The notes: a model not told the origin generated them from the letters alone. Shown: positions 473-16,798, counted from the first letter of the stretch. The stretch is 64,000 nt of DNA from Candidatus Poribacteria bacterium (GCA_022821965.1 JAJECN010000015.1:54785-118784), one strand, 5' to 3'. A program made the numbers and translations.

Positions 473-1888
473 ATGAAATTTTCAAATTCTAAAAGGCACG
501 TTTTGTTATTGTTGATGGTGATAGTCGCACTTTTTATCGGTTTCATTTCACACACTGTCGCGCAGGAAGATACAGGTACCGTTACCGGACGTGTTATTGA
601 TCTGGATGGAAACCCAGTTGTCGGGTTGCAGATATTTATCGCGCCTCTTGACCTTGATCCGGATGGACACATGTGGACGGTGTTTTTACCGGATGAGCAC
701 GCACAGTTGCGCCGCGCTTACACAGATCGAGAAGGTCGGTTTTCCGTAACGGATGTTCCTTCAGGTCCGGTATATATCAGTGCCCTTCCAGACGACATAG
801 ATAAACGACTGCCCAAAGACTTTGAAAGAATTGTAGATGAGTTCACGTCCAGGGATTGGACGAAGATCACAGAAGACGACATAGATGCATTCTATTCCAG
901 TAACTTCGGCATGCACTTAGATGATTTTGAACCAGATGTTGAAATTTTATTCATTCGCGTCCGAAGATTCACCTTATACCCGCGCACTGATTACGATCAA
1001 ATCGCTTTTGGTGTCAAATCGGGCGCACATATTAAGGATGTGGAAGTCATCGTACAGCCGAGGATGCGAGTTCGCGGACGTGTCCTTTTCAAAGATGGAA
1101 CACCGCTTACTAATACGCGTGTTGACCTTCGCGCGCCTTCTCGTGATGTGGATGGCTCCGGTTCCGGCGGTGCCAGCGGAGACTTGTGGGTGGATACTGA
1201 AGGTTATTTCGTTCTTTATATAGATGAGAAGAATGATCCAGCGTTCTACACGTTTTCGGTGGAATATCAGGACCTTTCTACAGAGGTTGAACCAATTCGC
1301 CTTGATCCAGGCGATCGATTTGATGGGTTGACGTTGACGTTTGACAGCGAACCGATTCCTCCCAAACGACCCTCTCAAAAAACGGAAATAGACGAGCCTG
1401 AACTATCTTCGCCTCCGCCCGTACCAGAACCATCGTCGAGACCGATGTCTCGTGATGTATGGGTCGTCAATCCTGAAAATGGGCACGCCTATAAAAGAAT
1501 TCACTGCGAAACCCGCGACGATGCGATTGCCCAAGCTACAAAGGAAAAAGCGCATCTCGTCTCAATCAACAACGAAGCGGAACAGGCATGGTTGGAGGCG
1601 GTTTTTGGGCGCAAATTCTATTGGATCGGACTCCGTCGTGTTCCCGCGACTGGTCAACTTGCCAAACGCGCAAAAGAATGGTGGCAGTGGGACAACGGCG
1701 ACTCTATCACCTATGCGAACTGGTTACCCAACGAGTTCTTTTCTGAAGCTTTGGATGCCAGCAAAAGAGATTATGTCGTCATGACGCTTCCTGACGGGAA
1801 ATGGTATCCGGTGAGTCCTGACAGTGTTATCTGGGGTATGACGGAGATGGCAATCCTCGAAAAAGCAAACGTGCTTGATAATCCGTAG
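473..1888 (+). CDS. secreted protein with 2x CarboxypepD_reg-like beta-sandwich, Pro-rich linker and C-terminal C-type lectin domain
   Basis: Strong SD AAGGAGG precedes a signal peptide. GRVIDLDGNPVVG prealbumin-like motif; CTLD motifs WVVNPENGHAY...WIGL...WQWDNGD...YANW. Confidence 0.85.
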   Translation: MKFSNSKRHVLLLLMVIVALFIGFISHTVAQEDTGTVTGRVIDLDGNPVVGLQIFIAPLDLDPDGHMWTVFLPDEHAQLRRAYTDREGRFSVTDVPSGPVYISALPDDIDKRLPKDFERIVDEFTSRDWTKITEDDIDAFYSSNFGMHLDDFEPDVEILFIRVRRFTLYPRTDYDQIAFGVKSGAHIKDVEVIVQPRMRVRGRVLFKDGTPLTNTRVDLRAPSRDVDGSGSGGASGDLWVDTEGYFVLYIDEKNDPAFYTFSVEYQDLSTEVEPIRLDPGDRFDGLTLTFDSEPIPPKRPSQKTEIDEPELSSPPPVPEPSSRPMSRDVWVVNPENGHAYKRIHCETRDDAIAQATKEKAHLVSINNEAEQAWLEAVFGRKFYWIGLRRVPATGQLAKRAKEWWQWDNGDSITYANWLPNEFFSEALDASKRDYVVMTLPDGKWYPVSPDSVIWGMTEMAILEKANVLDNP

Positions 1889-1983
1889 TGTTCTTTTTAT
1901 CTCAACACCCCCCAATTCTTTGAAAAATTATGCACCAGTTTTGCACCGAATAAGCGTCACTATAGGGCAATCGGAGGTAATTC

Positions 1984-4026
1984 ATGAAAAACATCGATGT
2001 TGAACTCATTCACCGTGTGCTTGATGGCGATGATGCCGCTTTCGCTGAGCTTGTGAAAAAATACCAAAAACCGGTTCACACGCTGGTGTGGCGTAAAATT
2101 GGAGATTTCCACATCGCCGAGGAAATTACGCAGGATACATTCTTAAAGGCGTATCAAGAATTGGCAAAGTTGAAAAAACCGCAGAGTTTTGCGAGTTGGC
2201 TTTATGTGATCGCTGCGAACCACTGCAGTACATGGCTGCGTAAAAAGCGTTTACAGACGCAGTCGCTTGAGGAAACGAGTAGTGCTCGCTTAGAAAAGGC
2301 GACATATTCGGGATATGTTGTTGAAGAAAAGGAGCGGACAGCCTTGGAAGCACAACGCGAAGTCGTGAAAAAATTGCTTGCGAAACTCCAAGAGAGTGAG
2401 CGCACAGTGCTCACACTGCATTACTTCGGTGAGATGTCCAGTGCAGAGATTAGCGCGTTTTTGGGTGTGTCAGCGAATACGATAAGGAGTCGTCTCCGTC
2501 GTGCGCAGCAGCGTTTAAGGAAGGACGAACCGATGATTCGAAAAGCCTTGGAAAATTTTCAAATCACGCCGCATCTCACAGAAAATATCATGCGTGAGAT
2601 CGCGCGTATGAAACCCGCTGCACCGTCCGGCAGTAAACCGGTGGTGCCGTGGGCAATTACTGTTTCTACGGTAGCGGTGGTATTTTTGATGTTGGGCGTT
2701 GGAAGCCATCAATACTTGTCGCGTGTCCAAAAACCGTATAATTTCGACGCAAGGTCAGAGATGACAGTTGAACTCATTGAAGCCCCCGTTGTGCTAAATC
2801 TTGAGTCCAAACCGGATATTCGGACTCAACTTGGCGACAACGATGCAATCGGTAGAGACAATAAAACGCATCAGAACCCTGATGCGACGCTATTTTCTTC
2901 CGCCTCTGGGCACATTCTCGATGAAGCGGGAGAACCGGTTTCTGGGATCACAATAGCCATTACACCTGTCGTAGACGGCAATGGGGGTTGGTTCCCGATG
3001 CGGGAACGTGCGCTTGAGGATACGCCTGCACGCCACGTGGAAAGCGATGAGAAAGGACGTTTTACTATCACCGATGCTATCTCTGGTCCCGTGTTGTTGT
3101 CGCTATTTCCATCCGGTGGCGCGGCAGTCCGTATTTTAAAGGTTCAAATCGGCGGATTGGTTTTCTATCCAAGCGGAATGATGGATCGTGGAATTGTATT
3201 TACCCCACCCCCGGGTGAGTCTATTGAGAATATTGAAGTTACGGTGCAGAGTCCGCACATCCGAGGGAGAGTACAACGCATGGATGGGAGACCCCTCGCC
3301 AACACAAAAGTCAACATCCGTTTTCGGGCAATAAGTCAGCACGGTCAAGCTTCTTCGTCTTCAAGTAGGAATACAGATCCTGAGGGGTACTTCGCATACT
3401 ATGCGGAGAGAGATATAGAGCAACCAACATTTTACATGTTTTCTGTGACATATCAGGGACAGACCCTCAATGCAGACCCGATTGTGCTTAAACCTGGAGA
3501 TCCAACACACGACATTGTTTTCACGTTTGATGGTTTGCCAGAAGAGCATTTACAGGCGCGGCGTGGCGGTTTCGCGAGCGCGTCCGCCTCAACAAGTGTT
3601 CGTGCGCAAGATGTGTGGGTAATAAAGCCGAACTTTTCTCTACAAACTGGGGCGCACGCTTACAAGAAGATTAAGTGTGAGAGTTGGGAAGATGCACGAA
3701 CCCAAGCCGCCGCCGAAGGCGCACATCTCGTTACAATCAACGATGCCGCAGAGCAGAAATGGTTGCACATTGTCTTTGGAAGCCAACCGAGTTGGATTGG
3801 ATTGAATGATATTGCGCAAGAGGGAGAGTGGCGATGGGACAACGGCGAACCGCTTACCTATATCAATTGGGGATTTCAAGAACCCAATGATACAAACAAT
3901 GGAGATGAAGATTGTGTCATCATGGGTCCCTCAGGAGAATGGGTAGATGTTAACCCTGCGGACGGCGAATGGCGCTGGATCCGGACAGCAATCATTGAGA
4001 AGGAAACGTTGTCCGTAGAGAAGTAG
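1984..4026 (+). CDS. ECF sigma-70 factor (regions 2 and 4) fused to anti-sigma-like segment, one TM helix, CarboxypepD_reg domains and C-terminal CTLD with EPN/DEDC motifs
   Basis: N-terminal sigma-70 r2 (FLKAYQEL) and r4 (TVLTLHYFGEMSSAEISAFLGVSANTIRSRLRRAQQRLRK). TM helix VVPWAITVSTVAVVFLMLGVG. C-terminal WIGLND..EGEWRWDNGEPLTYINW..EPNDTNNGDEDC. Confidence 0.85.
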   Translation: MKNIDVELIHRVLDGDDAAFAELVKKYQKPVHTLVWRKIGDFHIAEEITQDTFLKAYQELAKLKKPQSFASWLYVIAANHCSTWLRKKRLQTQSLEETSSARLEKATYSGYVVEEKERTALEAQREVVKKLLAKLQESERTVLTLHYFGEMSSAEISAFLGVSANTIRSRLRRAQQRLRKDEPMIRKALENFQITPHLTENIMREIARMKPAAPSGSKPVVPWAITVSTVAVVFLMLGVGSHQYLSRVQKPYNFDARSEMTVELIEAPVVLNLESKPDIRTQLGDNDAIGRDNKTHQNPDATLFSSASGHILDEAGEPVSGITIAITPVVDGNGGWFPMRERALEDTPARHVESDEKGRFTITDAISGPVLLSLFPSGGAAVRILKVQIGGLVFYPSGMMDRGIVFTPPPGESIENIEVTVQSPHIRGRVQRMDGRPLANTKVNIRFRAISQHGQASSSSSRNTDPEGYFAYYAERDIEQPTFYMFSVTYQGQTLNADPIVLKPGDPTHDIVFTFDGLPEEHLQARRGGFASASASTSVRAQDVWVIKPNFSLQTGAHAYKKIKCESWEDARTQAAAEGAHLVTINDAAEQKWLHIVFGSQPSWIGLNDIAQEGEWRWDNGEPLTYINWGFQEPNDTNNGDEDCVIMGPSGEWVDVNPADGEWRWIRTAIIEKETLSVEK

Positions 4027-4082
4027 GTCTTATGCTTTATTCAAGAAGTAGGTCTTATGCTTTATTCAAAAGGAGAGAAATT

Positions 4083-5531
4083 GTGAAACGTTTGAAAGCC
4101 AGTAACAAGGTTTTTGCATCGTTCATAGTAATTGGCTCGCTTTTCATCGGGTTCGCTTCACACAGCATTGCTGACGTGGAGACGGGAACCTTCTCTGGAC
4201 GTGTTGTTGATGCGGAAGGAAATCCTGTTGCGAAATTGCCGGTTATGATTGGACCCGCTATGGTTATGGGACACGGAATTCAATCCGCATTTTTTCCAAG
4301 GCTGTATTCTGCTTCGCGACGTTCACTTACAGGTGCGGATGGACAGTTTTCCATTACCGATATTACGCCGGGAATTTCCTACTTCGGGGCACTTCCTTAC
4401 GATGTAGAGACGCTCTTGCCAGATGAACTTACGGCAAACACTGCAAAGGCTACGGCAGAAAAGGATATCGCTGCGTTCCACGCAAGTGGAGTCATGAAAA
4501 TGGAGGTGGAGGATTTTGAACCCGATGTTGAGATCTTATCTCTCCGCATCCAAGGGATAACGTTCTATCCGCGTACCGATCACGAGAAGATTGGGTTTAG
4601 TGTCAAACCGGGAACCCATATTGAAAATGTAGAGGTCACGGTGCAACCTCGGATGCGAATTCGGGGACGTATCATTTTTAAAGACGAAACACCTCTTGTC
4701 AATGCACGTGTTCACCTCCGCTTCCGCTCTCAGAGTGTGGGTGGTAATCGCAACCGGCAGTCAGGCGGAAAACCGCGAACAGATGCTGCGGGTTATTTCA
4801 TCCATTATCTGGAGGAGAAAGATGATCCGGCGTTCTACACGTTTTCCGTGGAATACCAAGATCTTTCCGCAGAGGCTGGACCGATCCGTCTTGATCCAGG
4901 GGAACGTCTTGACGGAGTAAAGTTTACATTTGATAGTGAACCGGTTCCGCCGCCACAACCACCGTCTCACACTATTCCACAACCACCGCTACATATTGCT
5001 CCACAAGCATTACCTCAGACAAAGACCCTTGATCGTCCATCTGCAGCTACGCCACCGTCGCCGAGAAGATCCATGCCGATGTCAGAAGAGGTGTGGATAG
5101 TCAATCCAGAGAATTTGCATGCCTACAAAAAGATTTATTGTGAAACTCGCAGCGATGCTGTTGCACAAGCAAGGGAAGAAAACGCGCATCTTGTCACTAT
5201 TAACGACGCGGCAGAGCAGACGTGGTTAGCAAAGGTTTTTGAGCATAAATTCTACTGGATCGGGCTCAGTCGCGTTCCACCGGTGGGCACGTCTTCTAAC
5301 GCAACGCAATGGCGATGGGAGAGTGGTGAACCTATCACCTATGCGAATTGGTTACCCGATTATATCTTTGGTGAATCCTTGGATGTTGGTAAGAGGAACT
5401 ATGCTATTATGACGTTCACCGATGGGAAATGGTATGCCGTTGGTCCTGACAGTCTTGTCTGGGGTATTACGGAAATGGCGATCCTCGAAAAAGCAGACGT
5501 GCTTGATAATCCGTCCGCCGCAGAAGAATGA
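4083..5531 (+). CDS. secreted CarboxypepD_reg + C-type lectin domain protein (array paralog)
   Basis: SD AAAGGAGAG then GTG start giving signal peptide VKRLKASNKVFASFIVIGSLFIGFA. Track ORF 4032 has an upstream in-frame extension. CTLD at the C-terminus. Confidence 0.8.
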   Translation: MKRLKASNKVFASFIVIGSLFIGFASHSIADVETGTFSGRVVDAEGNPVAKLPVMIGPAMVMGHGIQSAFFPRLYSASRRSLTGADGQFSITDITPGISYFGALPYDVETLLPDELTANTAKATAEKDIAAFHASGVMKMEVEDFEPDVEILSLRIQGITFYPRTDHEKIGFSVKPGTHIENVEVTVQPRMRIRGRIIFKDETPLVNARVHLRFRSQSVGGNRNRQSGGKPRTDAAGYFIHYLEEKDDPAFYTFSVEYQDLSAEAGPIRLDPGERLDGVKFTFDSEPVPPPQPPSHTIPQPPLHIAPQALPQTKTLDRPSAATPPSPRRSMPMSEEVWIVNPENLHAYKKIYCETRSDAVAQAREENAHLVTINDAAEQTWLAKVFEHKFYWIGLSRVPPVGTSSNATQWRWESGEPITYANWLPDYIFGESLDVGKRNYAIMTFTDGKWYAVGPDSLVWGITEMAILEKADVLDNPSAAEE

Positions 5532-5622
5532 TAACTGTAAAAGGTATTCCTGTCCGAATAAACGTTTACATTAGCGCAATTTACTACCCTAATGCATCAA
5601 TATTACAAAAGGGGAATTTATA

Positions 5623-6864
5623 ATGAATCTTCAAAATTTCAAACAAAATCTTAGATTTTTTGTTGGGATGATAATACTTTCTCTTCTGGTATCATTGTCT
5701 GTTGTTGCTCAACAAGGCGCGACAATTTCTGGACGCGTCGTTGATGAGCTGGGGGATCCGGTTGTCGGCACTTCGGTAGCACTCCATCGGTATAAAGCCA
5801 TAGATGATGATGAGCGACGAGTACGATTCGTGCCTTTCTGGCAAAAGCCGGTCGATTTAGATGGAAGTTTTTCATTCACGAACATCGCGCCAACGGAGTC
5901 CGTTAGTTTCATTGTAGAGGGTGAACGAACGAAAGGAAAAATCCTTTCTATTCAAATGGGTGAACTCACCCTTTATCCGGGGGACCATCCACATTTTGGT
6001 AAAGTAAGGTTTTCCTTGGAAGCAGGGATGGAAATCGAAGACGTTGTCGTCACGGTGAATACTACTATCCAACCACAAGTCCGCGTCCGAGTCGTTTCTG
6101 CCGATGGAACACCGCTTGCCAACGCGAATATACACGTTGCAGTACAACGTAAAGATTTAGATGGAACTGGCTCTGGGAGTTCTGGTAACACAACACAGAC
6201 CGATGCAGAAGGATATTTCGTAGAAGACCTTAGGGTGGATGACGATCCTAAATTCTATGTGCTTGGCGTTGAACACCAAGGACTTTTCGCGAAAGCACCG
6301 CCTTTCATTTTACATGAAGGACAACCACAAGTTCATCTCCTTTTGACCCTCAACGGTAATCCAGATCCACTTGCACGTCCACCAGTACGTCCGCCAATGG
6401 GTCCACCTGCGTCCGCTATTGCACTAACGGCGTTTCTTGATCCACCAACGGTATGGATTGTGAACCCCGCAAATGGACACGCTTACAAAAAGATCCATTG
6501 TAACAGTATAGCAGATGCTACGACCCAAGCCGCTGCAGAAAAGGCGTATCTCGTTGCCATCAATGATGAGGCAGAAAATGAATGGCTGGACGGAATCTTT
6601 GGGCGAGAGAGTTTTTGGATTGGACTCAACGATGCCGCCGAAGAAGGACAGCTGGTTTGGGATAGCGGTGAACCTGTTACCTATACGAATTGGGGTGAAC
6701 ATGAACGAGTAGGTGACAACACTGAGGTGAATGACTACGTTATCTGGGGATTTGGCGGTAGATGGGAAATGGTCGCGCTTGGAAGTCCGCATACGCATTT
6801 TGTCAAAACAGCTATTCTTGAAAGGACAGATGTCCCTGTTGAAACAGCATCTGAAGACAATTAG
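5623..6864 (+). CDS. secreted CarboxypepD_reg + C-type lectin domain protein (array paralog)
   Basis: SD precedes a signal peptide. CTLD motifs [43 protein letters not shown]. Confidence 0.85.
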   Translation: MNLQNFKQNLRFFVGMIILSLLVSLSVVAQQGATISGRVVDELGDPVVGTSVALHRYKAIDDDERRVRFVPFWQKPVDLDGSFSFTNIAPTESVSFIVEGERTKGKILSIQMGELTLYPGDHPHFGKVRFSLEAGMEIEDVVVTVNTTIQPQVRVRVVSADGTPLANANIHVAVQRKDLDGTGSGSSGNTTQTDAEGYFVEDLRVDDDPKFYVLGVEHQGLFAKAPPFILHEGQPQVHLLLTLNGNPDPLARPPVRPPMGPPASAIALTAFLDPPTVWIVNPANGHAYKKIHCNSIADATTQAAAEKAYLVAINDEAENEWLDGIFGRESFWIGLNDAAEEGQLVWDSGEPVTYTNWGEHERVGDNTEVNDYVIWGFGGRWEMVALGSPHTHFVKTAILERTDVPVETASEDN

Positions 6865-6930
6865 CGACAACGCAACGTTGGGTTGGCTTTCAGTTTAATC
6901 CAATCTGCATTTTTATAAGGAGAATTTACG

Positions 6931-8265
6931 ATGAATCACCGAAGTTTCACACACATTGCATACCTTTTCAGTGTTGTAATAGTACTCTTTCTCGTTGCAT
7001 CCGTCCCTTGTATCGCACAGAACGGGACAGCACTCTCTGGTACCGTCCTTGACATGGAAGGGAAGCCGATTGCTGGATTTGCCATTGGGTTGTTACAAGG
7101 GGCTCTAATATCCATGACTGATGAAAAGGGTGCTTTCACTTTCACCAATATCCCCGCCGGACCGGTTCAAATTGCGATTCCAACGCAGCCGTCCAAAGAG
7201 AATGAAGAACCTATGTTCGATTTTGAGGCGGATGATGAAATCCTCTCAATCAAAATCAGGGGTATAACGCTTTATCAAGACACGCGTCCGCCTTTCGGCG
7301 GCATCGAGTTCGGTGTCAAATCGAGCAGCCATATCAAGGATGTAGCGGTTACCGTGCGTCCCCGAACGCGCATTCGGGCGAAAGTTATTTTCAAAGATGG
7401 AAAGCCGCTAACGAACGCCTCTGTTTCCCTGATAGTTGAGGGCAACGGTAGGGCGACCGGAGGAGCTACCACGGATGCCGAGGGATATTTTGTAAGTTAT
7501 TTCGATAAAAACGAGGTCCCAGCACACTACACGGTCTCCGTGAAATATAAAGGACTCTCGGCGAAATCAGAACTATTTCTGCTTGAAGAGGGGGCGCGCT
7601 ATGACGATTTAGTTTTAACGCTCGATGGTAATGTGCCGCCTGCTGCCCCACAAAAGGAATCTCTGCCGAAAGTTTTAGATAAATTGAGTGATGGATTGAC
7701 ACCACCTGAGAAACCGACACTCACCGAAACAGACCGCTCTGTACCAACTAACAAGGGGCAGGTTAATATTCAAGAGGTAGAAGTAAAACCTCGTGTAACA
7801 GGGGCTGAACCTACTAAACCCGTTAGGCAGATGCGACCGCCGTGGGAGAAAGATGCGTGGGCTGTGAACCCTGCAAATGGACACGGTTATAAAAAGATCC
7901 GGTGCGACAGTCTGGATGAGGCGCGAGATCGCGCTGCCGCTCAAGGCGCGTTCCTTCTTGCGATTAACGACGAAGCGGAGCAGAAATGGATTTCGGGATT
8001 CTTTGGGAATCATCTCTATTGGATTGGACTCAGCGATGCTGAAAACGAAGGGGAATGGGTATGGCAGAACGGTGATCCGCTCACCTATACGAATTGGGGA
8101 CCCAAGCACAGTTTCCCGCGGAGTCCGCTTTCACAGGAAAAGAAGGACAGTGCTGTGATGACGTTTGCGAATGGACAGTGGCATGCCGTTGGTCCCGGTG
8201 ACGTGCTCTGGCGTATGACGAAGATGGCAATCCTTGAAAAAGCAGACGTGCTTGATGGAAAATAA
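6931..8265 (+). CDS. secreted CarboxypepD_reg + C-type lectin domain protein (array paralog)
   Basis: SD AAGGAGA precedes a signal peptide. C-terminal CTLD; its 3' end is near-identical to that of the next gene. Confidence 0.85.
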   Translation: MNHRSFTHIAYLFSVVIVLFLVASVPCIAQNGTALSGTVLDMEGKPIAGFAIGLLQGALISMTDEKGAFTFTNIPAGPVQIAIPTQPSKENEEPMFDFEADDEILSIKIRGITLYQDTRPPFGGIEFGVKSSSHIKDVAVTVRPRTRIRAKVIFKDGKPLTNASVSLIVEGNGRATGGATTDAEGYFVSYFDKNEVPAHYTVSVKYKGLSAKSELFLLEEGARYDDLVLTLDGNVPPAAPQKESLPKVLDKLSDGLTPPEKPTLTETDRSVPTNKGQVNIQEVEVKPRVTGAEPTKPVRQMRPPWEKDAWAVNPANGHGYKKIRCDSLDEARDRAAAQGAFLLAINDEAEQKWISGFFGNHLYWIGLSDAENEGEWVWQNGDPLTYTNWGPKHSFPRSPLSQEKKDSAVMTFANGQWHAVGPGDVLWRMTKMAILEKADVLDGK

Positions 8266-8321
8266 TATTTCTCGGACTCCAGTTTATTTGATGTCTCAAC
8301 ATTCAAAAAAGGAGAATCTAC

Positions 8322-9722
8322 ATGAATCTTCAACGTCTCGGTTTAAAACTTGGGATCCTCGTCGGCATTGTGGTATTCTCCTCTACTGTCGTCACTAAAG
8401 TGCAGGCAGGTAAACGCCCACAAATTCGCGCACGGGTCGTCTTTGCCGATGGAACACCGCTTGCTAACGCTGAAATATATGTTTTGGTGATACGCAGAAA
8501 CTTAGATGCAGGCGGCTCCGGAGGTTCAGGAAGTACAATGCAGACCGATGCCGAGGGATACTTTGTGGAAACCCTTAACGTAGGTAATAGATCCAAATTT
8601 TATGTGGTTGGTGTTGCGTATCAGAGGTATCTCGCGAAAGTCCCCCCTTTTATTTTGCAGGAGGGACAACCAGAAGTTCATCTACTCTTGACACTTGATG
8701 ACAATCGCGTTCCGATAGATAGATGGAACCCTGACCGAGAACACACAGCATTAGAAGCGTTTCTTGAGCCACCGACGGTATGGGTAGTGAATCCTATAAA
8801 TGGGCACGCTTATAAAAAGATTTATTGCCACGATGTAATGGATGCCCTGACCCAAGCCGCTACAGAAGGTGCGTATCTTGTTTCCATTAACGATGAAGCG
8901 GAGGAGATATGGATACAAGGAGTCTTTGAACCAGATAGTTTTTGGATCGGACTCAGCGATGTTGCTAAGGAGGGACAGTGGGTCTGGCACAGCGGTGAAC
9001 CGGTTACGTATACTAACTGGGGAGAGAATAAACAGGACGGTGGTAACACCGAGGTGAACGATTACGTCATCTCTGACTTTGGTGCCGAATGGCGGGCGGT
9101 TGCGCCGGGGGATGAACATACCCCTTTTACCCAAGAGGCAATCCTCGAAAGAGCAGATGTGCCTGTTAAGACACTATCTAATGAACAGACAAATGCCCAG
9201 CCAACGGGTGTCTCAATACCACCTGATAAAACTACCACCGCTCAAACCGGTCGTTTTGTCCCATCTCGGCAAATAAAGTCACTTTTGGAGATAGGTGTAT
9301 GGGCTGTAAACCCGGCAAATGGGCATGCTTACATAAGTATTCCGTGCAAAAGTCTGGACGATGCGCGAGATAGTGCCGCTGCCCAAGGTGCACACCTCGT
9401 CGCGATTAACGACGCAGCGGAACAGCAGTGGCTTTTAGGACTTTTTGGGAATCACCTTTATTGGATCGGACTCAGTGATGCCAAAAAAGAGGGTGAATGG
9501 ATATGGCAGAACGGTGAACCACTTACCTATAAGAATTGGGGATCCAAGTATAAATTCCCTCGTAGTTCTCTCTCACTGGAAGAGAAAGACAGTGCTGTTA
9601 TGACGTTTGCGAATGGACAGTGGCATGCTGTTGGTCCCGGTGACGTGCTCTGGCGTATGACGAAGAGGGCGATCCTTGAAAAAACAGACGTGTTTGACAG
9701 TTCCTCTGTGAAAGAAAAATAA
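8322..9722 (+). CDS. secreted mosaic paralog with two tandem C-type lectin domains
   Basis: Signal peptide, then a single prealbumin-like domain (5623-type). CTLD 1 resembles the 5623 gene's CTLD and CTLD 2 resembles the 6931 gene's CTLD. Confidence 0.85.
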
Positions 9723-9972
9723 TAGTTTGAATCTACAATTTTTCGTTTCGTGCTCACTTCTCCCCAGACAATTTTTTCCAATTAATTTGTCAGTCATTCC
9801 CACAAAGTCTACAGAGACATTCAGTTTTCCTGTGGCATTCAAAATATGTAGAACTGCCACAAGGTTCTCTTGCTAACGACCCATAACTGATAACTCCCGC
9901 GTGGAACGGGTTTCTTCGGGAAACACACAAGGAAAACACCCCGATCTCTCCCGCATAAGATGGAAATGGCTT

Positions 9973-10722
9973 ATGAGCCACCGAAACCTTTTACATAGAA
10001 TATTGGTAATCCCCCTTACAGTTACAATTTGTGCTTTCTTGGGTTGTGGTGAAACTATAGAAACTATAGAGATAGACAGAGCGAGTTTTTCAGGACGCGT
10101 TGTTGATGAAGTTGGAAATCCAGTTGCAGGGCTCGCGTTAGTCATTGTCCCGTGTAAAGTTGATGATGAGGCCGATATAGCGGTTTACGACGCGGAGACT
10201 AATGATACAGGTCATTTCTCTATTACGGGTATCTATCCCGGAAAAGCTCATTTCATGTTAGAGCCTGGGTATCAAAACGGTCTACCTCTTGAGCCGGAAT
10301 ATCAACTCCTTTCCTTTAAAATCGGGGTTTCTGCTTACTCTCCGAAAGACTTGTCTCCTGATCCTTGCACTCAGGATACCTTTTTTATTTCGCCGGGTGC
10401 GCGAATCGAAAACGTAGAGGTCGCGGTGCGCCTCCGGATGCGGATTCGCGCGAAAGTCGTTTTTGCAGATGGCACCCCCTTGGTAGATAAAGAGGTTAGT
10501 CTCAACATAAGAGCGTTCGATTTACAAGGAAGTAGTGTTGTTGGAGGTATCCAGGGGTCTGTGCAAACCGATGCTCAGGGATACTTTGTGCAGTATGTAG
10601 ATAGGAACGAGGCAATCGGCTATAGGGTGTCAGTTGAATATAAATGGCTTTGCTCAACATCGGAGATATTTATATTCGGAGTTGAGGAACGTCGCGAAGA
10701 TCTGATTTTGAAGTTAAGTTGA
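9973..10722 (+). CDS. lipoprotein paralog with CarboxypepD_reg-like domains, lacking the lectin domain
   Basis: Lipobox AFLG-C after MSHRNLLHRILVIPLTVTI. GRVVDEVGNPVAG motif. The protein ends before any CTLD. Start chosen at the in-frame ATG that gives a canonical lipoprotein signal; track ORF begins at GTG 9901. Confidence 0.7.
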   Translation: MSHRNLLHRILVIPLTVTICAFLGCGETIETIEIDRASFSGRVVDEVGNPVAGLALVIVPCKVDDEADIAVYDAETNDTGHFSITGIYPGKAHFMLEPGYQNGLPLEPEYQLLSFKIGVSAYSPKDLSPDPCTQDTFFISPGARIENVEVAVRLRMRIRAKVVFADGTPLVDKEVSLNIRAFDLQGSSVVGGIQGSVQTDAQGYFVQYVDRNEAIGYRVSVEYKWLCSTSEIFIFGVEERREDLILKLS

Positions 10723-10844
10723 AGTTAACAAGTGCACCCAAGTGAAGTGTGCCCTTTTTAAATCCAGACACCTGTAAACTGATTCATACCTTAGCTTGGA
10801 CGACATGCAGAGAAGATTCTACCCACATAAAGGGGAGGGTAACT

Positions 10845-11642
10845 ATGAGTTGTCAAAATTTTTTACATGAAATAGTGTTAATTTCCTTTGTAATTGCAAT
10901 CTGTACCTTATTGGGTTGTGGTGAAACTGAAGATACGTCCTCCTTGGCATTGTCGGAAACCGTGATAGATGGGGACACAGCAAGTTTTTCAGGGCGCGTT
11001 GTTGATGAAAATGGGAATCTGGTTGCTGGGCTTGCCTTGGTCATTCAGCCTCTTGAAGTCGACGATAATACTGGGGGGTGGATGTACGGTCCGACTTTGG
11101 AAGCGGAGACCGATGATGCAGGACATTTCTCTATCACAAATATTCGTCCTGGGCAATTTCAATTCATGTTGGCACGTGACTATCGGAACAGTCTGCTTTT
11201 TGAAACGGAATATCAACTCCTTTCTGTCAAAATCGGGACTTTTGCCTATCATCCGGGCGACCGGTTCCCTCCTGCTTTTACTAAAGATACTCTTTCTATC
11301 ACTCCAGGCGCGGAAATAGAAAACGTAGAGGTCACGGTACGACTCCGAATGCGGGTTCGCGCGAAAATTGTTTTTGCAGATGGCACGCCCTTGGCAAACA
11401 AGGAAGTTAAAATCAGCATAAAAACGCGAGATTTACATGGAGATGGGAGTGGGAGTATTGGGTCTATATTGCAAACCGATGTCCAAGGGTACTTCATACA
11501 GTACGTGGATAGAGGTCGGGCGACCTCCTACACCGTATCGGTAGAATATAAAGAACTTTCTGCAACGTCAGAGAAATTTGTACTCAATGTCGGGGAACGT
11601 CGCGAAGATTTAATTTTGAAATTATCGGGTCCTCCCCAGTAA
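10845..11642 (+). CDS. lipoprotein paralog with CarboxypepD_reg-like domains, lacking the lectin domain
   Basis: SD AAAGGGGAGGG then ATG. Lipobox TLLG-C. About 60% identical to the 9973 gene. Confidence 0.75.
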   Translation: MSCQNFLHEIVLISFVIAICTLLGCGETEDTSSLALSETVIDGDTASFSGRVVDENGNLVAGLALVIQPLEVDDNTGGWMYGPTLEAETDDAGHFSITNIRPGQFQFMLARDYRNSLLFETEYQLLSVKIGTFAYHPGDRFPPAFTKDTLSITPGAEIENVEVTVRLRMRVRAKIVFADGTPLANKEVKISIKTRDLHGDGSGSIGSILQTDVQGYFIQYVDRGRATSYTVSVEYKELSATSEKFVLNVGERREDLILKLSGPPQ

Positions 11643-11687: not shown

Positions 11688-12767
11688 TCACGAAAGTAGA
11701 TTTCCACAGTAGGCACAAGCGTCTAACTTGACATCTCCATTAAACGTTTCACGCTCCGGCGTTAAGTAGGTCTCATAGTTCGTAACGCAATTTGGGTTTT
11801 CACACGTCCGAGTAGAGGTGCCAATGTCTCGTTTCGGGGGTTGGGTCAAGATGAGTTGTTCCAATCCCATGAGACTGGCGATGAGTGCCATCCGAACCGG
11901 TACTGCGTTGGCGGATTGCTCGAAATAGGCGGCACGTGGGTCGTCGTCTAACTCATAAGCGAGTTCATTGACGCGCGGGAGTGGATGCATAATCATCGCG
12001 TCCGGCTTTGCGTTTTTCATGACTTCTGCATTCAGTAGATAACTGCCGCGCACGGCGGCTGGATCCATGTTCGATGGCAGTCGTTCCTCCTGAAGCCGAT
12101 TCACATAGATGACATCCAACCTCTCAATCACTTCTGTGATATTTTCTACTTCAAGCGGTATCTGTCCATGACACTGTTCGAGTTGCGCGAGCAGCCACGG
12201 TGGCATCTGTAGCGGTTGTGGCGCGATGTGAACCAGTTGCCCACCGAATCTCGCAACTGCCAAAGCAAAGGAGTGTGCCGCTCGTCCAAACTGCAGATCG
12301 CCGCAGATACCGACGGTTAACCCTTCTACTTTCGATTTTCGGCGTATAATCGTATATAGGTCCGCGAGTGCTTGTGTCGGATGTGTATGGCTGCCATCAC
12401 CGCCGTTGATGACGGGGATATGCGCGTATTTTGCCATAACACGTGCTGCGCCTGCCCAGTTATGCCGCACCACAATGATGTCGGCATAATTCGTCACCAT
12501 CCGCGCAGTGTCGGCGAGCGTTTCGCCTTTGGCGGTAGAAGTCGCGCTTGGGTCAGCGAAACCGAGAGTGCCACCATTGAGGCGTTCCATCGCACTTTCA
12601 AACGAAAGCCGGGTACGTGTACTCGGTTCATAGAAGAGCGTTGCGAGCAATTTGCTCCTGCTGATGCCCGCCCATGTCTCTAATTGCGACTGCATGCCTC
12701 CTGCAAGTCGAAAAATCTGTTCAATCTCAAAATTCGACAAATCGTCGAGTGTTATCAGATGCCGCAT
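11688..12767 (-). CDS. pyrB: aspartate carbamoyltransferase catalytic chain fused to a PyrI-type C-terminal zinc-ribbon domain
   Basis: STRTR and HPTQALAD ATCase motifs with SD AAGGAGG. Extra C-terminal ~45 aa C-ENPNC...C-AYC resembles the PyrI zinc domain (CPNSNC...CKYC). Confidence 0.85.
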   Translation of the reverse strand: MRHLITLDDLSNFEIEQIFRLAGGMQSQLETWAGISRSKLLATLFYEPSTRTRLSFESAMERLNGGTLGFADPSATSTAKGETLADTARMVTNYADIIVVRHNWAGAARVMAKYAHIPVINGGDGSHTHPTQALADLYTIIRRKSKVEGLTVGICGDLQFGRAAHSFALAVARFGGQLVHIAPQPLQMPPWLLAQLEQCHGQIPLEVENITEVIERLDVIYVNRLQEERLPSNMDPAAVRGSYLLNAEVMKNAKPDAMIMHPLPRVNELAYELDDDPRAAYFEQSANAVPVRMALIASLMGLEQLILTQPPKRDIGTSTRTCENPNCVTNYETYLTPERETFNGDVKLDACAYCGNLLS

Positions 12768-12809
12768 TTTCCTCCTTTAAGCACGTGTTGTGAGTGTATC
12801 TTTTCGTTC

Positions 12810-13766
12810 TTATCTGCTTAAAGATTGCATGAACGCTTCAAGACTGTCGGATTGAGGAACCGCAAGTAACAATTGCTTGAGGTCTTGCAAATCGTCTATA
12901 GATTCAAGAGCAGGCTTTAAGGCTTGGACTGCATCAGTCTCAAACTGCATCCCGAGCAATGCGATAATGTTTTCAATGGTGCCTTTTTTTTCACCTTGTT
13001 CGATGCCTTGTTCAATACCTTGTTCAATACCTTGTTCAATACCTTGTTCGATGCCTTCCTTGAGTCCCTCTTGTTTAGCCTCTATTTTTGCCTCCTGAAT
13101 GTAGTGTTGAAAAAAAGGAGATTCTTGCATGATACCCTCCGGTAAAAGTTGTTTAATCAGTTGGGGTTCATAAACTAAACCGCCAAAAACACCCAGGGCT
13201 GCCAATAAAGTATCTCGAGTATGTCGGTCTGTGCGTGCTGATGCTGTTACATCAATACATTTTTCCAACCAACGGTTCGGATTTGTCCCTTCTGGCGGTT
13301 TCATCAACGGTGTGAACGGCAGTAATCCCGGTGCCTGCATTTCCAAAATTGATTGTCCATCTATCTCAATCAACTTAATCACTTTGTAGCGCAATGTGTA
13401 TTCATAACCGGAATCCTTGTAAGCATAGTAGCCTTTATCATATCTGCCTGCTTTGGGGTGCAGATAGAGAACGTTAGAGTAAACAGGTATCTCATGTAAA
13501 TTCATCAGAAAACCGTTATATCCTGCAATCCGGGACCACATCGGTTTTCTGCTATTATCTGCTTGGACCTCGGTATGAAGTATCACTGTTGCGTTGTCGA
13601 GCTGCACCTTCAAGGTACTGTCATTTTGATGCGTCTTGAGTGTTGGTTCCTCAGTTTCAAGTCTCTCCAGAACTGTGATGTTTGAATGCCCCACCATGAA
13701 TTCTGCGAATTCTTGTGAATATTCCAGCATAATATATTTCGCTGCGTTGTCATAATGCTGTGCCAT
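12810..13766 (-). CDS. Rpn-family recombination-promoting nuclease / putative transposase (PDDEXK_7) with C-terminal GIEQ repeat domain
   Basis: VILHTEVQ (D/E..Q nuclease motif) and a C-terminal (GIEQ)x5 DUF4351-like repeat. Start uncertain; an alternative upstream start at 13841 would overlap pyrD. Confidence 0.6.
   Translation of the reverse strand: MAQHYDNAAKYIMLEYSQEFAEFMVGHSNITVLERLETEEPTLKTHQNDSTLKVQLDNATVILHTEVQADNSRKPMWSRIAGYNGFLMNLHEIPVYSNVLYLHPKAGRYDKGYYAYKDSGYEYTLRYKVIKLIEIDGQSILEMQAPGLLPFTPLMKPPEGTNPNRWLEKCIDVTASARTDRHTRDTLLAALGVFGGLVYEPQLIKQLLPEGIMQESPFFQHYIQEAKIEAKQEGLKEGIEQGIEQGIEQGIEQGIEQGEKKGTIENIIALLGMQFETDAVQALKPALESIDDLQDLKQLLLAVPQSDSLEAFMQSLSR
12995..13054. repeat. 5 tandem copies of a 12-bp unit (CTTGTTCAATAC/CTTGTTCGATGC) encoding the (GIEQ)5 repeat of the Rpn-family protein
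   Basis: Direct reading of the sequence. The repeat lies inside the CDS, is in-frame and is not a CRISPR array. Confidence 0.9.
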
Positions 13767-13815
13767 ATTGTTATTATACACCAGATTTTCAGGAGATACA
13801 ACTTTTTCACAATAA

Positions 13816-14745
13816 TTACGAATCGACCTGCAAGCTACCAATCAATTCATTAATCGATTTCATGTTTGCTTCTTTGAGGTAGGCGTGAATCCCTTTTACG
13901 ACTTCTATTGATGCGTGTGGATTAACGAAGTTCGCTGTCCCGATTGCGACGGCGGAGGCACCGGCGATAAAAAATTCAATGGCATCTGTCGCAGTCATAA
14001 TGCCTCCCATGCCGATAATTGGGATTGAGACGTTTTTGTAAACCTCCCAAACCAATCGGAGTGCCACGGGCTTTATCGCAGGACCGGAGAGTCCTCCTGT
14101 CACGTTTGCAAGTTCCGGTTTTCGTGTTTCTGCATTAATCGCCATACCGAGAAGCGTGTTGATGGCGGAAAGCGCGTTCGCACCCGCATCCTCGACGGCA
14201 CGTGCAATAATGCTAATATCTGTAACGTTTGGGGAGAGTTTCACTAAGAGTGGTAGGTGTGTGTTTGCTCGAACCTCTGTGACAAGTTGATGTGCCAACG
14301 TTGCATCAACACCGAAACTCATACCACCGCAATCTAAGTTCGGACAGGAGATGTTGAGTTCCACCCCCGCGATGCCATCTGCCGTGTTTAGTTTTTCGAT
14401 CACTGTCAGGTATTCTTTGACCGTTTTGCCACAGACGTTGACAATTACCGGTACATCGAAATCACGGAGGTAGGGAAGTTTCTCCGAGATAAAACCGTCT
14501 ACGCCGACGTTTTGAAGTCCAATCGCATTGAGCATACCGGAGGGTGTTTCCATGATGCGTTGCATCGGATTGCCGGGCCACGGCACGCTTGTGATGCCTT
14601 TAACGACGACCGCACCGAGTCGGTTCAGATCCACGAAATCCACGTATTCACTGCCGTAGCCGAAGGTGCCGGATGCCGTCATGACGGGATTGCGCATCTG
14701 TATCCCGCCGATATTCACGCTGAGTGGTAAGTCTGTTGTGTCCAT
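13816..14745 (-). CDS. pyrD: dihydroorotate dehydrogenase, class 1 catalytic subunit
   Basis: Motifs NPVMTASGTFGYG, LNISCPN, GGMSFG. Start chosen by homology at MDTTDLPL; the ORF extends in-frame to 14790. Confidence 0.8.
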   Translation of the reverse strand: MDTTDLPLSVNIGGIQMRNPVMTASGTFGYGSEYVDFVDLNRLGAVVVKGITSVPWPGNPMQRIMETPSGMLNAIGLQNVGVDGFISEKLPYLRDFDVPVIVNVCGKTVKEYLTVIEKLNTADGIAGVELNISCPNLDCGGMSFGVDATLAHQLVTEVRANTHLPLLVKLSPNVTDISIIARAVEDAGANALSAINTLLGMAINAETRKPELANVTGGLSGPAIKPVALRLVWEVYKNVSIPIIGMGGIMTATDAIEFFIAGASAVAIGTANFVNPHASIEVVKGIHAYLKEANMKSINELIGSLQVDS

Positions 14746-14854
14746 TTTATCTAAATGAGGGTAGTTTTGCTGTTCTTCATGAATCTTCATGAAAAGTTTA
14801 GCACCAATATATCTCAGAAGTCAAGCAATTTTCCGCATTCTTTTGGTAAGAGGT

Positions 14855-16798
14855 TTACCAACTTAGGTAGACGACGCGAAAATCGAAAATCAATCCCAAA
14901 ATACTAATTATGGATGCGACGATCACATCACCAATAACCAAGCCGATGAAGAACGGGATTGAACGCCGGTATAAGCGGACACCTCCAGTCGAGAGCAATA
15001 TCCGTTTAATGATCCAACTGATTAAGAGCGGAAACCAAAGTCCGGTAAAGGTCCACCAACTTGAAACGACGTATCCAACGGGATGCAGGGGCCACTGAAT
15101 GAATCGCCATCGTAGGAGCAGGAGGCTAACAGCGAAGGTAAATCCGCCAGCGGTATAGAGCATACCGCTAATACTCGTTTCGCTGGGATTATAAAGCCAT
15201 CCCGCGAGTCTGTTGAAAGCGGCGCGAGCATACCACGAGCGCGCCTGCTCTAAACCGACTTGGTAGGAGAGATGCAAGTGTCCCCACGCTGCAGAGAGCG
15301 CACCTACGAAGATAGCAATCGCTAATACCCATAGCAATTGCGTCGGATTGAAGCGGGTTTGATGTGCGAGTTTCAATCCCTCCAGTTGATGCGGCATCGG
15401 GTGTGCACGATACGAGAGATGGTTCAACCAGAAAAAGAGCGACATCACCGAGAGGTTCCGGTTGCCGATACGCCGTGTGCCGAGAGCATCTGTCAAAAGT
15501 AGGTCTGGACCGGCGTTGTAGAGGTCGTGCGCGGGCGGTCCCAGTTCGGCACGGATACGGGTGATTGTCACCGACATCGCGAAATAGAGCGCGAAGAATA
15601 AGGCTGCAAACCAGAGCGACATTCCCGCCTTCAGACAAAACGCCAGAATCAAGATAAATCCGATGAGCGCGCCGATGCCTGCTGTTCTATAACGTAACGC
15701 TTCACCTTCGTCGTTAGTGGGAGGCGCGCGGTTGTTGAAAATCGTCTGCAGCACCACCTTAACATGTGAACGTCCCATCCACAGGGTCCAGAGAAATAGG
15801 GCTATCCAGACCCCTCGAATTTGCGCCATTTCTCGCGGAAATCCGACAGCACCTCGCCAGCCGAACATCTCACCAATGATCCGCTCAAAGTGCCAAAACA
15901 GGTGAAAAAACCAGCAGGAGAACCCCAAATCGAGTGGGATCAGAAAACCCACCCCAATCGCAAACGGAAAGAAACTGATACGGAAACCGGGGTTATTCAT
16001 CGCACTCCACGGCTTTTCACCGAGTCGAAATCCGTGGTAAAGCGGAATTGTAGGGAAAACAGGATCGATTTGGTGTAAACTATAAAGAAGATTCAGGACA
16101 GCAGCGATGCATAAGCCGACGGTCATCATCCGTCTATTGAAAAACAGATGGGACGCAGTTCGTAGGGGGTTTCCTGCATTTGTCGCCGCTCGTGTGATTT
16201 CGTAAGGGAGTTGTGCGATCGGGTAGGTGAGCCGTTCATGTTCTTGCCACTGCTTACGTATAAGCACATTGATGCAGAGCATCGTCACCCCGATGACGAG
16301 GCAGAAACAGACCCAGATTAACGTTGGCAATAGCCACGCTTGTATGTTGGTCTGGAGGTAGAACGTGGATTCGCCTTTGTAGAAACCTTGTAATACCTCC
16401 TGTTTTCCAACGACAAGCCATTCAGGAAGGTGTTGATGAAAGAGTTGTGCCCATTCATTTTCGGTAGTTGCGTACCAAAAACCGTTGCCCATCAATGGCA
16501 CCAAGACTTGTAGCATATCGCGTCCGGCGAAAACGGAGGCTTGGCACAGCATCGCATAGATCGTTAGCAATTCGCTCTGTGTAAACGCCAACGTTGGGTG
16601 CAAGCGGCGTAGTATCACACTGAGTCCGATAAGGACGAGCAGCGTGAACAGGACATTGAACAGCAATGCTAAACTCGTGGGGCGGTTGGAGTCCCATATA
16701 TAACTGAGGTGTAGAACCCAGTAGCTATTAAATGGGATGAGCAGAATTCCAATCAGCGTTGCACGTAGCGTAATAGGGCTTTTTGAAGGGTGTTTCAT
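14855..16798 (-). CDS. large polytopic integral membrane protein of unknown function (647 aa, >12 predicted TM helices)
   Basis: Long ORF made of hydrophobic segments throughout. No catalytic motif recognised. Confidence 0.6.
   Translation of the reverse strand: MKHPSKSPITLRATLIGILLIPFNSYWVLHLSYIWDSNRPTSLALLFNVLFTLLVLIGLSVILRRLHPTLAFTQSELLTIYAMLCQASVFAGRDMLQVLVPLMGNGFWYATTENEWAQLFHQHLPEWLVVGKQEVLQGFYKGESTFYLQTNIQAWLLPTLIWVCFCLVIGVTMLCINVLIRKQWQEHERLTYPIAQLPYEITRAATNAGNPLRTASHLFFNRRMMTVGLCIAAVLNLLYSLHQIDPVFPTIPLYHGFRLGEKPWSAMNNPGFRISFFPFAIGVGFLIPLDLGFSCWFFHLFWHFERIIGEMFGWRGAVGFPREMAQIRGVWIALFLWTLWMGRSHVKVVLQTIFNNRAPPTNDEGEALRYRTAGIGALIGFILILAFCLKAGMSLWFAALFFALYFAMSVTITRIRAELGPPAHDLYNAGPDLLLTDALGTRRIGNRNLSVMSLFFWLNHLSYRAHPMPHQLEGLKLAHQTRFNPTQLLWVLAIAIFVGALSAAWGHLHLSYQVGLEQARSWYARAAFNRLAGWLYNPSETSISGMLYTAGGFTFAVSLLLLRWRFIQWPLHPVGYVVSSWWTFTGLWFPLLISWIIKRILLSTGGVRLYRRSIPFFIGLVIGDVIVASIISILGLIFDFRVVYLSW

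Follow-up and report, generated by a model that had tools for sequence, protein, structure and literature searches.

What does the catalytic chain of an aspartate carbamoyltransferase (ATCase) do with the zinc domain of the regulatory chain PyrI when the domain that binds nucleotides is missing? The question is raised by a stretch of 64,000 nucleotides from a Candidatus Poribacteria bacterium (GCA_022821965.1, JAJECN010000015.1:54785-118784), referred to here as the window, which carries a gene for this textbook allosteric enzyme of the pyrimidine pathway. A sequence-only reading of the window had proposed that the ATCase fold of this gene product is complete, that it continues for about 45 residues into a four-cysteine motif resembling the PyrI zinc domain, that the allosteric domain is absent, and that no separate pyrI is present in the window; from this it inferred a catalytic chain holding its zinc clamp in cis, in a holoenzyme that may be unregulated or regulated in another way. 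The gene, called pyrB-Zn below, was followed up by profile searches, structure prediction, ortholog comparison, and scans of other genomes. Coordinates of all window features are given in Table 1.

The catalytic part was identified using Pfam and NCBIfam. The window protein scored 315.4 bits against TIGR00670 (cut-off, 236.95) and 298.9 bits against NF002032 (cut-off, 263), and both ATCase domains were found by Pfam (Table 1). The active-site set tested (STRTR, R105, HPTQ, R167, R229, Q231, and HPLPR in Escherichia coli numbering) is present in full as STRTR, R101, HPTQ, R162, R224, Q226, and HPLPR, and is invariant in 92 aligned orthologs. The best matches in the PDB were the PyrI-associated ATCases 1ml4 (E = 8e-84), 2rgw, and 1pg5, the nearest solved catalytic chains being those of Pyrococcus abyssi, Methanocaldococcus jannaschii, Sulfolobus, Moritella, and E. 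coli, while the unregulated enzyme of Bacillus subtilis (2at2) was a much weaker match (4e-40). An AlphaFold2 (AF2) model of the whole chain as a monomer had a mean predicted local distance difference test score (pLDDT) of 86.2 and a predicted template modelling score (pTM) of 0.86, and Foldseek aligned it to 1ml4 with E = 1.4e-31 and a TM-score of 0.88 (normalized to the target). By these matches, a complete catalytic chain of a PyrI-associated ATCase spans residues 2-300 and is predicted to be catalytically competent, and the fold is complete before the extension begins, as had been proposed.

The extension is real but longer than first estimated. The chain runs for about 58 residues past the last ATCase helix, with a short junction (residues 302-321) followed by a Cys4 core (residues 322-354), and the C-terminus reads ...TCENPNCVTNYETYLTPERETFNGDVKLDACAYCGNLLS*. 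The cysteines are spaced C-x4-C-x23-C-x2-C, which is the spacing of C109, C114, C138, and C141 in E. coli PyrI; they align to these ligands, the signatures CxNxNC and CxYC are both present, and N324 and N326 fall at the positions of E. coli N111r and N113r (c and r denote catalytic and regulatory chains). The Pfam family PF02748 (PyrI_C) matches residues 321-356 with 19.3 bits in the whole protein and 21.7 bits in the tail alone (E = 1e-3 to 2e-4), against a gathering cut-off of 23.4 bits, so the alignment to PyrI_C that had been suggested as a check finds the domain but leaves the window copy under the family threshold. Measured against one of the refuting conditions set with the sequence-only reading, a tail that does not score to this HMM, the window copy taken alone is borderline, and homology rests on evidence from the family as a whole. 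PF02748 was matched at E ≤ 1e-3 by 60 of the 92 aligned orthologs (best, 1.3e-7), and fused tails from Planctomycetota scored 29.8-38.9 bits. A profile made from 22 diverse tails was searched against all PDB sequences using hmmsearch, and the top twelve matches were PyrI regulatory chains, including 2yww_A (3.8e-5), 1pg5_B (8.8e-4), and E. coli 1d09_B (3.5e-3); PDB PyrI chains align to the profile at r97-142 with all four cysteines matched. Aligning the same profile to an alignment of genuine PyrI using hhalign gave a probability of 97.7% and E = 1.6e-12 over 47 columns of the zinc domain. The fold is supported by an AF2 model of the tail alone (pLDDT 86), for which the top 17 Foldseek matches were all PyrI chains with TM-scores of 0.56-0.70 (normalized to the query). 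A generic zinc ribbon unrelated to PyrI was ruled out, the profile, profile-profile, and fold searches all returning PyrI first and almost only PyrI. On sequence profiles and predicted structure, the tail is a PyrI-type Cys4 zinc domain homologous to the C-terminal domain of PyrI.

The other half of PyrI was not found. The allosteric domain PF01948 was not matched in the window protein by Pfam or NCBIfam. The PyrI regulatory-chain family NF002063 reached 15.3 bits against a cut-off of 171, over profile positions 101-137 only, and the Thermotoga-type fused family NF009916 reached 96.8 bits against a cut-off of 800, over residues 42-301 only, which is the catalytic part. Searching the window using tblastn with E. 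coli PyrI gave nothing better than E = 0.17, and a hidden Markov model (HMM) that was trained on the allosteric domain of 11 PyrI sequences and run over all stop-to-stop open reading frames (ORFs) had no match in the window. The nucleotide-binding domain and a separate pyrI are thus both missing from the window, in line with the sequence-only reading.

Mapping the protein onto the E. coli chains suggests how the two parts came together. In the alignment to the E. coli c chain, residues 2-301 of the window protein cover c7-305, placing the end of the c-equivalent at about 306, and the tail profile starts at L307, with profile position 4 (P310) aligned to E. coli r97. With only about three residues separating the c-like from the r-like segment, the protein looks like c(1-310) joined to r(97-153). 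Such a chain could have arisen by a single in-frame deletion that began at the pyrB stop codon and removed roughly 95 codons from the start of a pyrI lying downstream, the part that encodes the allosteric domain. AF2 pLDDT in the junction is 80-88, and L305, L307, T308, P310, P311, and R313 are conserved in at least 90% of the 92 orthologs; the confident model and the conservation fit a fixed, docked tail.

A decaying, functionless remnant of pyrI, or a frameshift introduced by sequencing or assembly, would also put PyrI-like sequence behind pyrB, and the score of the window copy under the Pfam cut-off could be taken that way. The ortholog search returned more than 100 clusters, nearly all of 359 amino acids (aa) and 54-99% identical, the named ones being Candidatus Poribacteria, so that the same frame and nearly always the same length recur in more than 100 independent assemblies. 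All 92 aligned orthologs, at identities down to 54%, keep C322, C327, C351, and C354; the 21 most diverse of them also share N324, E332, and Y353 without exception, and at least 90% of the 92 have N324, N326, E332, Y334, E338, E340, Y353, and G355. The ratio of nonsynonymous to synonymous substitution rates (dN/dS), computed from two orthologous loci, is 0.085-0.10 in the tail at a synonymous divergence (dS) of about 1, compared to 0.04-0.07 in the catalytic core, which places the tail under purifying selection. With the shared frame and length and the dN/dS values, a frameshift or merger of two genes, the other event that would have undone the sequence-only reading, was ruled out. The same layout also occurs in at least five other phyla, and a remnant or an artifact is considered very improbable.

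The distribution outside Poribacteria was obtained in two ways. Searching 1.84 billion representative proteins with the tail profile returned genuine PyrI and, beside it, C-terminal pieces of fused proteins belonging to several divergent types. A profile of tails from outside Poribacteria matched 294 proteins in a set of 5.8 billion; most of the 120 listed pair PF00185 with PF02748, and the names among them include Ruminococcus, Evtepia, Faecousia, Lachnospiraceae, and Eubacterium. The matches listed from this set are short fragments, which inform on names and domain pairs but not on full-length counts. A degenerate DNA pattern (last ATCase helix, a gap of 20-30 residues, CxNxxC, a gap of 18-24 residues, and Cx[YF]C) was then scanned over one genome per GTDB species and gave at least 120 loci. 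In about 110 of 120 pattern loci, the translation passes from the C-terminal region of an ATCase into a Cys4 tail. Most of these stop-to-stop ORFs have about 350-390 codons, some being cut by contig ends, and where a start could be placed the proteins are 350-371 aa long, with a Planctomycetota group at 442-456 aa. The allosteric-domain HMM was negative in 119 of the 120 loci; the sole match (L102) is a true pyrI caught by the DNA pattern, and serves as a positive control.

The fused layout was found in Clostridia (Oscillospiraceae, Ruminococcus, Christensenellaceae, and others), including the cultured Pseudoflavonifractor phocaeensis An507 and a Clostridium isolate, in Bacteroidales (Alistipes, Paludibacteraceae, and Muribaculaceae), and in Armatimonadota, Poribacteria, Planctomycetota, and Verrucomicrobiia. 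As far as predicted proteins go, the zinc-only PyrB fusion is a widespread architecture and not special to the window genome. Clostridial fused tails are 60-78% identical to genuine PyrI zinc domains, compared to 22-35% to the Poribacteria tail, and no fused core from outside Poribacteria exceeds 55% identity to the window core. A non-fused PyrB of clostridial type, from locus L121, shares about 62% identity with clostridial fused cores, compared to 44% with the window protein. Because of this pattern of tail and core identities, truncation and fusion appear to have happened more than once, probably repeatedly and independently, as judged from pairwise identities.

The zinc-only piece also occurs as a gene of its own. 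At L121, a pyrB of 305 aa ends ...RMALIAKMLEVV*, and an ORF of 53 aa holding only the zinc domain starts one base later in another frame. This mini-PyrI (3001-3162 of the locus) starts at an ATG behind a GGAGG of its own; pyrC, pyrF, pyrK, and pyrD come next, and the allosteric domain was not found in the locus. The 90%-identity clusters that match it contain RefSeq proteins of 47-55 aa with a PF02748 match only (WP_084748551.1, WP_152890887.1, and WP_297435660.1), from Clostridium mediterraneense, C. tarantellae, and an uncultured Clostridium, under the names "hypothetical protein" or "aspartate carbamoyltransferase." Given L121 and the RefSeq genes, the zinc-only partner exists both fused and free, and the free genes lend independent support to the view that this piece is a working unit. 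The Clostridium mini-PyrI genes are not known to have been studied.

One further candidate, a 57-aa protein (P0147, L123 720-1164), was rejected as a mini-PyrI since a run of N in the assembly interrupts an otherwise normal pyrI there, of which this protein is the C-terminal end; the case is a caution against counting zinc-only genes from gene calls alone.

Some fused proteins carry more than the zinc domain. In Planctomycetota and Verrucomicrobiia, an extra module of about 55 aa with the motif VGCSTT..H...S...RK..P.HLVF....A...GF follows the zinc domain (loci L003, L009, L028, L039, L040, L055, L066, L087, L088, and L100; proteins of about 442-456 aa). The module has a weak, sub-threshold likeness to the Ada metal-binding domain (PF02805, E = 0.0018).

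Function was considered by analogy with E. coli, where the zinc domain forms the contact between regulatory and catalytic chains and where the zinc domain of r1 touches c1 as well as c4 of the opposite trimer. In work by Markby, Zhou, and Schachman (PNAS 1991), the isolated 70-aa zinc domain reportedly formed a stable complex with the E. coli catalytic trimer and changed its kinetics markedly, the complex staying trimer-based. Mutations of N111r, N113r, and E142r abolish the nucleotide feedback effects in E. coli, and mutation of K143r, a T-state contact, destabilizes the T state (10.1101/662718).

The reading that we favor, with fair rather than high confidence, is that the tail is a zinc clamp that stabilizes and tunes the PyrB trimer without nucleotide control of the PyrI kind. 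The domain would bind one zinc ion through its four cysteines and would pack on the surface formed by the carbamoyl-phosphate domain and the 130s loop of a catalytic chain, as the PyrI zinc domain does in E. coli. As a built-in, permanent clamp, it would stabilize the trimer and set the affinity for the substrate aspartate. Since both the nucleotide-binding domain and the trimer-bridging r-r dimer interface are missing, CTP/ATP control of the PyrI kind would be lacking. The predicted assembly is a c3 trimer with three zinc domains, the natural counterpart of the engineered complex of trimer and zinc domain.

Several points weigh against the clamp. The PF02748 score of the window copy is under the gathering cut-off, and part of the E. 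coli interface is lost, the equivalents of E142r and K143r being G355 and N356 and the position of E109c being A105. With about three residues of spare linker, the geometry may force binding to a neighboring chain. The search for pyrI spans the window and the scanned loci, and pyrI or another regulator may lie elsewhere in the genome. For the clamp, the canonical docking position in cis, the binding of zinc, the oligomeric state, and the lack of a nucleotide response are all predictions.

The short linker leads to the main rival to the clamp, in which the tail would attach in trans, either to another trimer or, by domain swapping, to a neighboring chain, giving a c6 hexamer with possible homotropic cooperativity in an enzyme that has no nucleotide-binding subunit. 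The two-trimer contact of the r1 zinc domain and the role of K143r in the T state, both described above for E. coli, would fit such an arrangement, as would the high conservation of a junction whose lack of slack could prevent canonical docking in cis. Yet the equivalents of K143r and E142r are not kept, the interface that bridges trimers in E. coli sits in the missing allosteric domain, the engineered complex reportedly remained trimer-based, and the AF2 monomer model (pTM 0.86) puts the tail confidently on its own chain. Binding in trans is considered unlikely.

Conservation in the tail is not limited to the ligands, E332, Y334, E338, and E340 being kept under strong purifying selection, and this could point to a docking or sensing module, which may serve a regulatory partner from another locus or some other effector, or may use the four cysteines as a switch that responds to redox state or zinc supply. 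The extra module in Planctomycetota suggests that the C-terminus can serve as a platform. No conserved candidate partner was seen, however, beside the gene in the window, in an orthologous Poribacteria locus (L122), or in the 120 pattern loci as far as these were inspected; the PyrI zinc domain is not known to have any ligand other than the catalytic chain; and the c:r contact already known accounts for the tail more simply than partner binding would. Partner binding and sensing are weaker rivals than binding in trans, and are rated as rather improbable.

Table 1. Features of the pyrB-Zn locus and other ORFs described in the text (positions in the 64,000-nucleotide window).
Feature	Position	Strand	Basis or description
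Whole coding sequence of pyrB-Zn, 359 aa + stop	11688..12767	minus	ORF reading; >100 ortholog clusters, nearly all 359 aa
Stop codon of pyrB-Zn	11688-11690	minus	
ATG of pyrB-Zn	12765-12767	minus	
Shine-Dalgarno-like GGAGG, 3 nt 5' of the pyrB-Zn ATG	12771..12775	minus	Read from sequence
Carbamoyl-phosphate-binding domain, residues 2-141 (S49-T-R-T-R53, R101, H129-P-T-Q132)	12345..12764	minus	PF02729, 163.1 bits; motif residues invariant
Aspartate-binding domain, residues 148-298 (R162, R224, Q226, H261-P-L-P-R265)	11874..12326	minus	PF00185, 91.6 bits; residues invariant
Junction, residues 302-321 (LEQLILTQPPKRDIGTSTRT)	11805..11864	minus	E. coli chain mapping; conservation; AF2 pLDDT 80-88
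PyrI-type Cys4 zinc domain core + C-terminus, residues 322-359	11691..11804	minus	Predicted ligands C322, C327, C351, C354
pyrD-type dihydroorotate dehydrogenase	13816..14790	minus	PF01180, 276 bits
343-aa ORF between pyrD and pyrB	12810-13841	minus	TTG start; (GIEQ)5 repeat
647-aa membrane protein	14855-16798	minus	DUF6785 + DUF6784
680-aa protein	1984-4026	plus	ECF sigma factor (regions 2, 4) + CarboxypepD_reg + C-type lectin
Array of eight paralogous ORFs	473-11642		Six CarboxypepD_reg + C-type lectin, two CarboxypepD_reg only
CarboxypepD_reg-only ORF of array	9901-10722		
CarboxypepD_reg-only ORF of array	10749-11642		

The choice of start codon for pyrB-Zn is supported by the orthologs, all of which start MR and most MRH; other ORFs over the same stretch on either strand are short shadows of this one. 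The gene downstream is convergent. Upstream lies the 343-aa ORF, followed by pyrD. At L122, on a 5.55-Mb contig, the ortholog is 92% identical, and pyrD stands directly before pyrB with a gap of 67 nt; on this basis, pyrD-pyrB is taken as the unit and the 343-aa ORF as an insertion in the window genome. The inserted ORF matched no family in Pfam or NCBIfam, giving only low-complexity FliH-like matches and a faint trace of Rpn/TIGR01784 (E = 0.03). In both Poribacteria loci, pyrD adjoins the 647-aa membrane protein (6979-8943 at L122), which is accompanied by an M50B peptidase and chorismate synthase. The window also holds the array of CarboxypepD_reg ORFs, most with a C-type lectin domain, and within this array the 680-aa protein, which joins an extracytoplasmic function (ECF) sigma factor to the same domains; the arrangement of sigma factor and lectin array is also present at L122.

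Prokaryotic ATCases are grouped by a 2015 review into three quaternary types: the complex with dihydroorotase, c6r6 with regulatory chains that are separate or, as in Thermotoga, fused, and bare trimers (PMC4581275). Judged on domain content, the zinc-only PyrB fits none of the three. The catalytic chain of the E. coli class B (c6r6) enzyme is of the same subfamily as the window protein, and its PyrI zinc domain is homologous to the tail, with the same Cys4 spacing and the CxNxNC and CxYC signatures. The window protein differs from it in having no allosteric domain, r-r dimer, or PyrI-type CTP/ATP site, in carrying the zinc domain covalently on the catalytic chain, and in having lost the equivalents of E142r and K143r. 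The PyrB-PyrI protein of Thermotoga maritima (NF009916, "bifunctional catalytic/regulatory subunit," profile length 525) is likewise one polypeptide with the catalytic part first. In that protein, which the review cites as the fused c6r6 variant (PMC4581275), the regulatory chain is retained in full and allostery is reported, whereas the window protein keeps the zinc half only.

The best functional analogy is the engineered E. coli trimer with the 70-residue zinc domain, which has the same composition and likewise no allosteric domain; it is, however, a non-covalent laboratory fragment of an allosteric enzyme, whereas the window protein is natural, covalent, conserved, and known from sequence. 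The class C trimers of B. subtilis share the expected outcome, a trimer without nucleotide control, but have no zinc domain at all and are more distant in sequence by the PDB scores given above. The Clostridium mini-PyrI is the same retained piece (PF02748 only) adjoining the same enzyme, as a separate, translationally coupled gene. No published description of a zinc-only PyrB or of a zinc-only mini-subunit was found in full-text searches, whose coverage of subscription papers is thin. In precomputed Pfam annotations of related proteins, PyrB and PF02748 domains already occur together, and the database name of the fused proteins is simply "aspartate carbamoyltransferase."

It is tentatively suggested, as a possibility worth entertaining, that PyrB with a zinc-only PyrI remnant, fused or as a mini-subunit of 47-55 aa, forms a separate class of ATCase that is widespread, has evolved repeatedly, and uses the zinc domain alone as its functional accessory. 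The zinc-only form is natural and recurrent, yet it is a domain-architecture variant of a very well understood enzyme. Were the suggestion true, the zinc domain may stabilize or tune the trimer, or may tie trimers together in trans and so give cooperativity without nucleotides, and its role would be separable from allostery. The presence of the form in gut Clostridia, Alistipes, sponge-associated Poribacteria, and other phyla suggests a use of the zinc domain beyond relaying nucleotide signals. Fused, split, full-PyrI, and tail-less enzymes could be compared for the share of the c:r contact in stability and kinetics and for the gain or loss of allosteric control. If the suggestion holds, the zinc-only enzymes would also be natural intermediates for the assembly or dismantling of a textbook allosteric enzyme.

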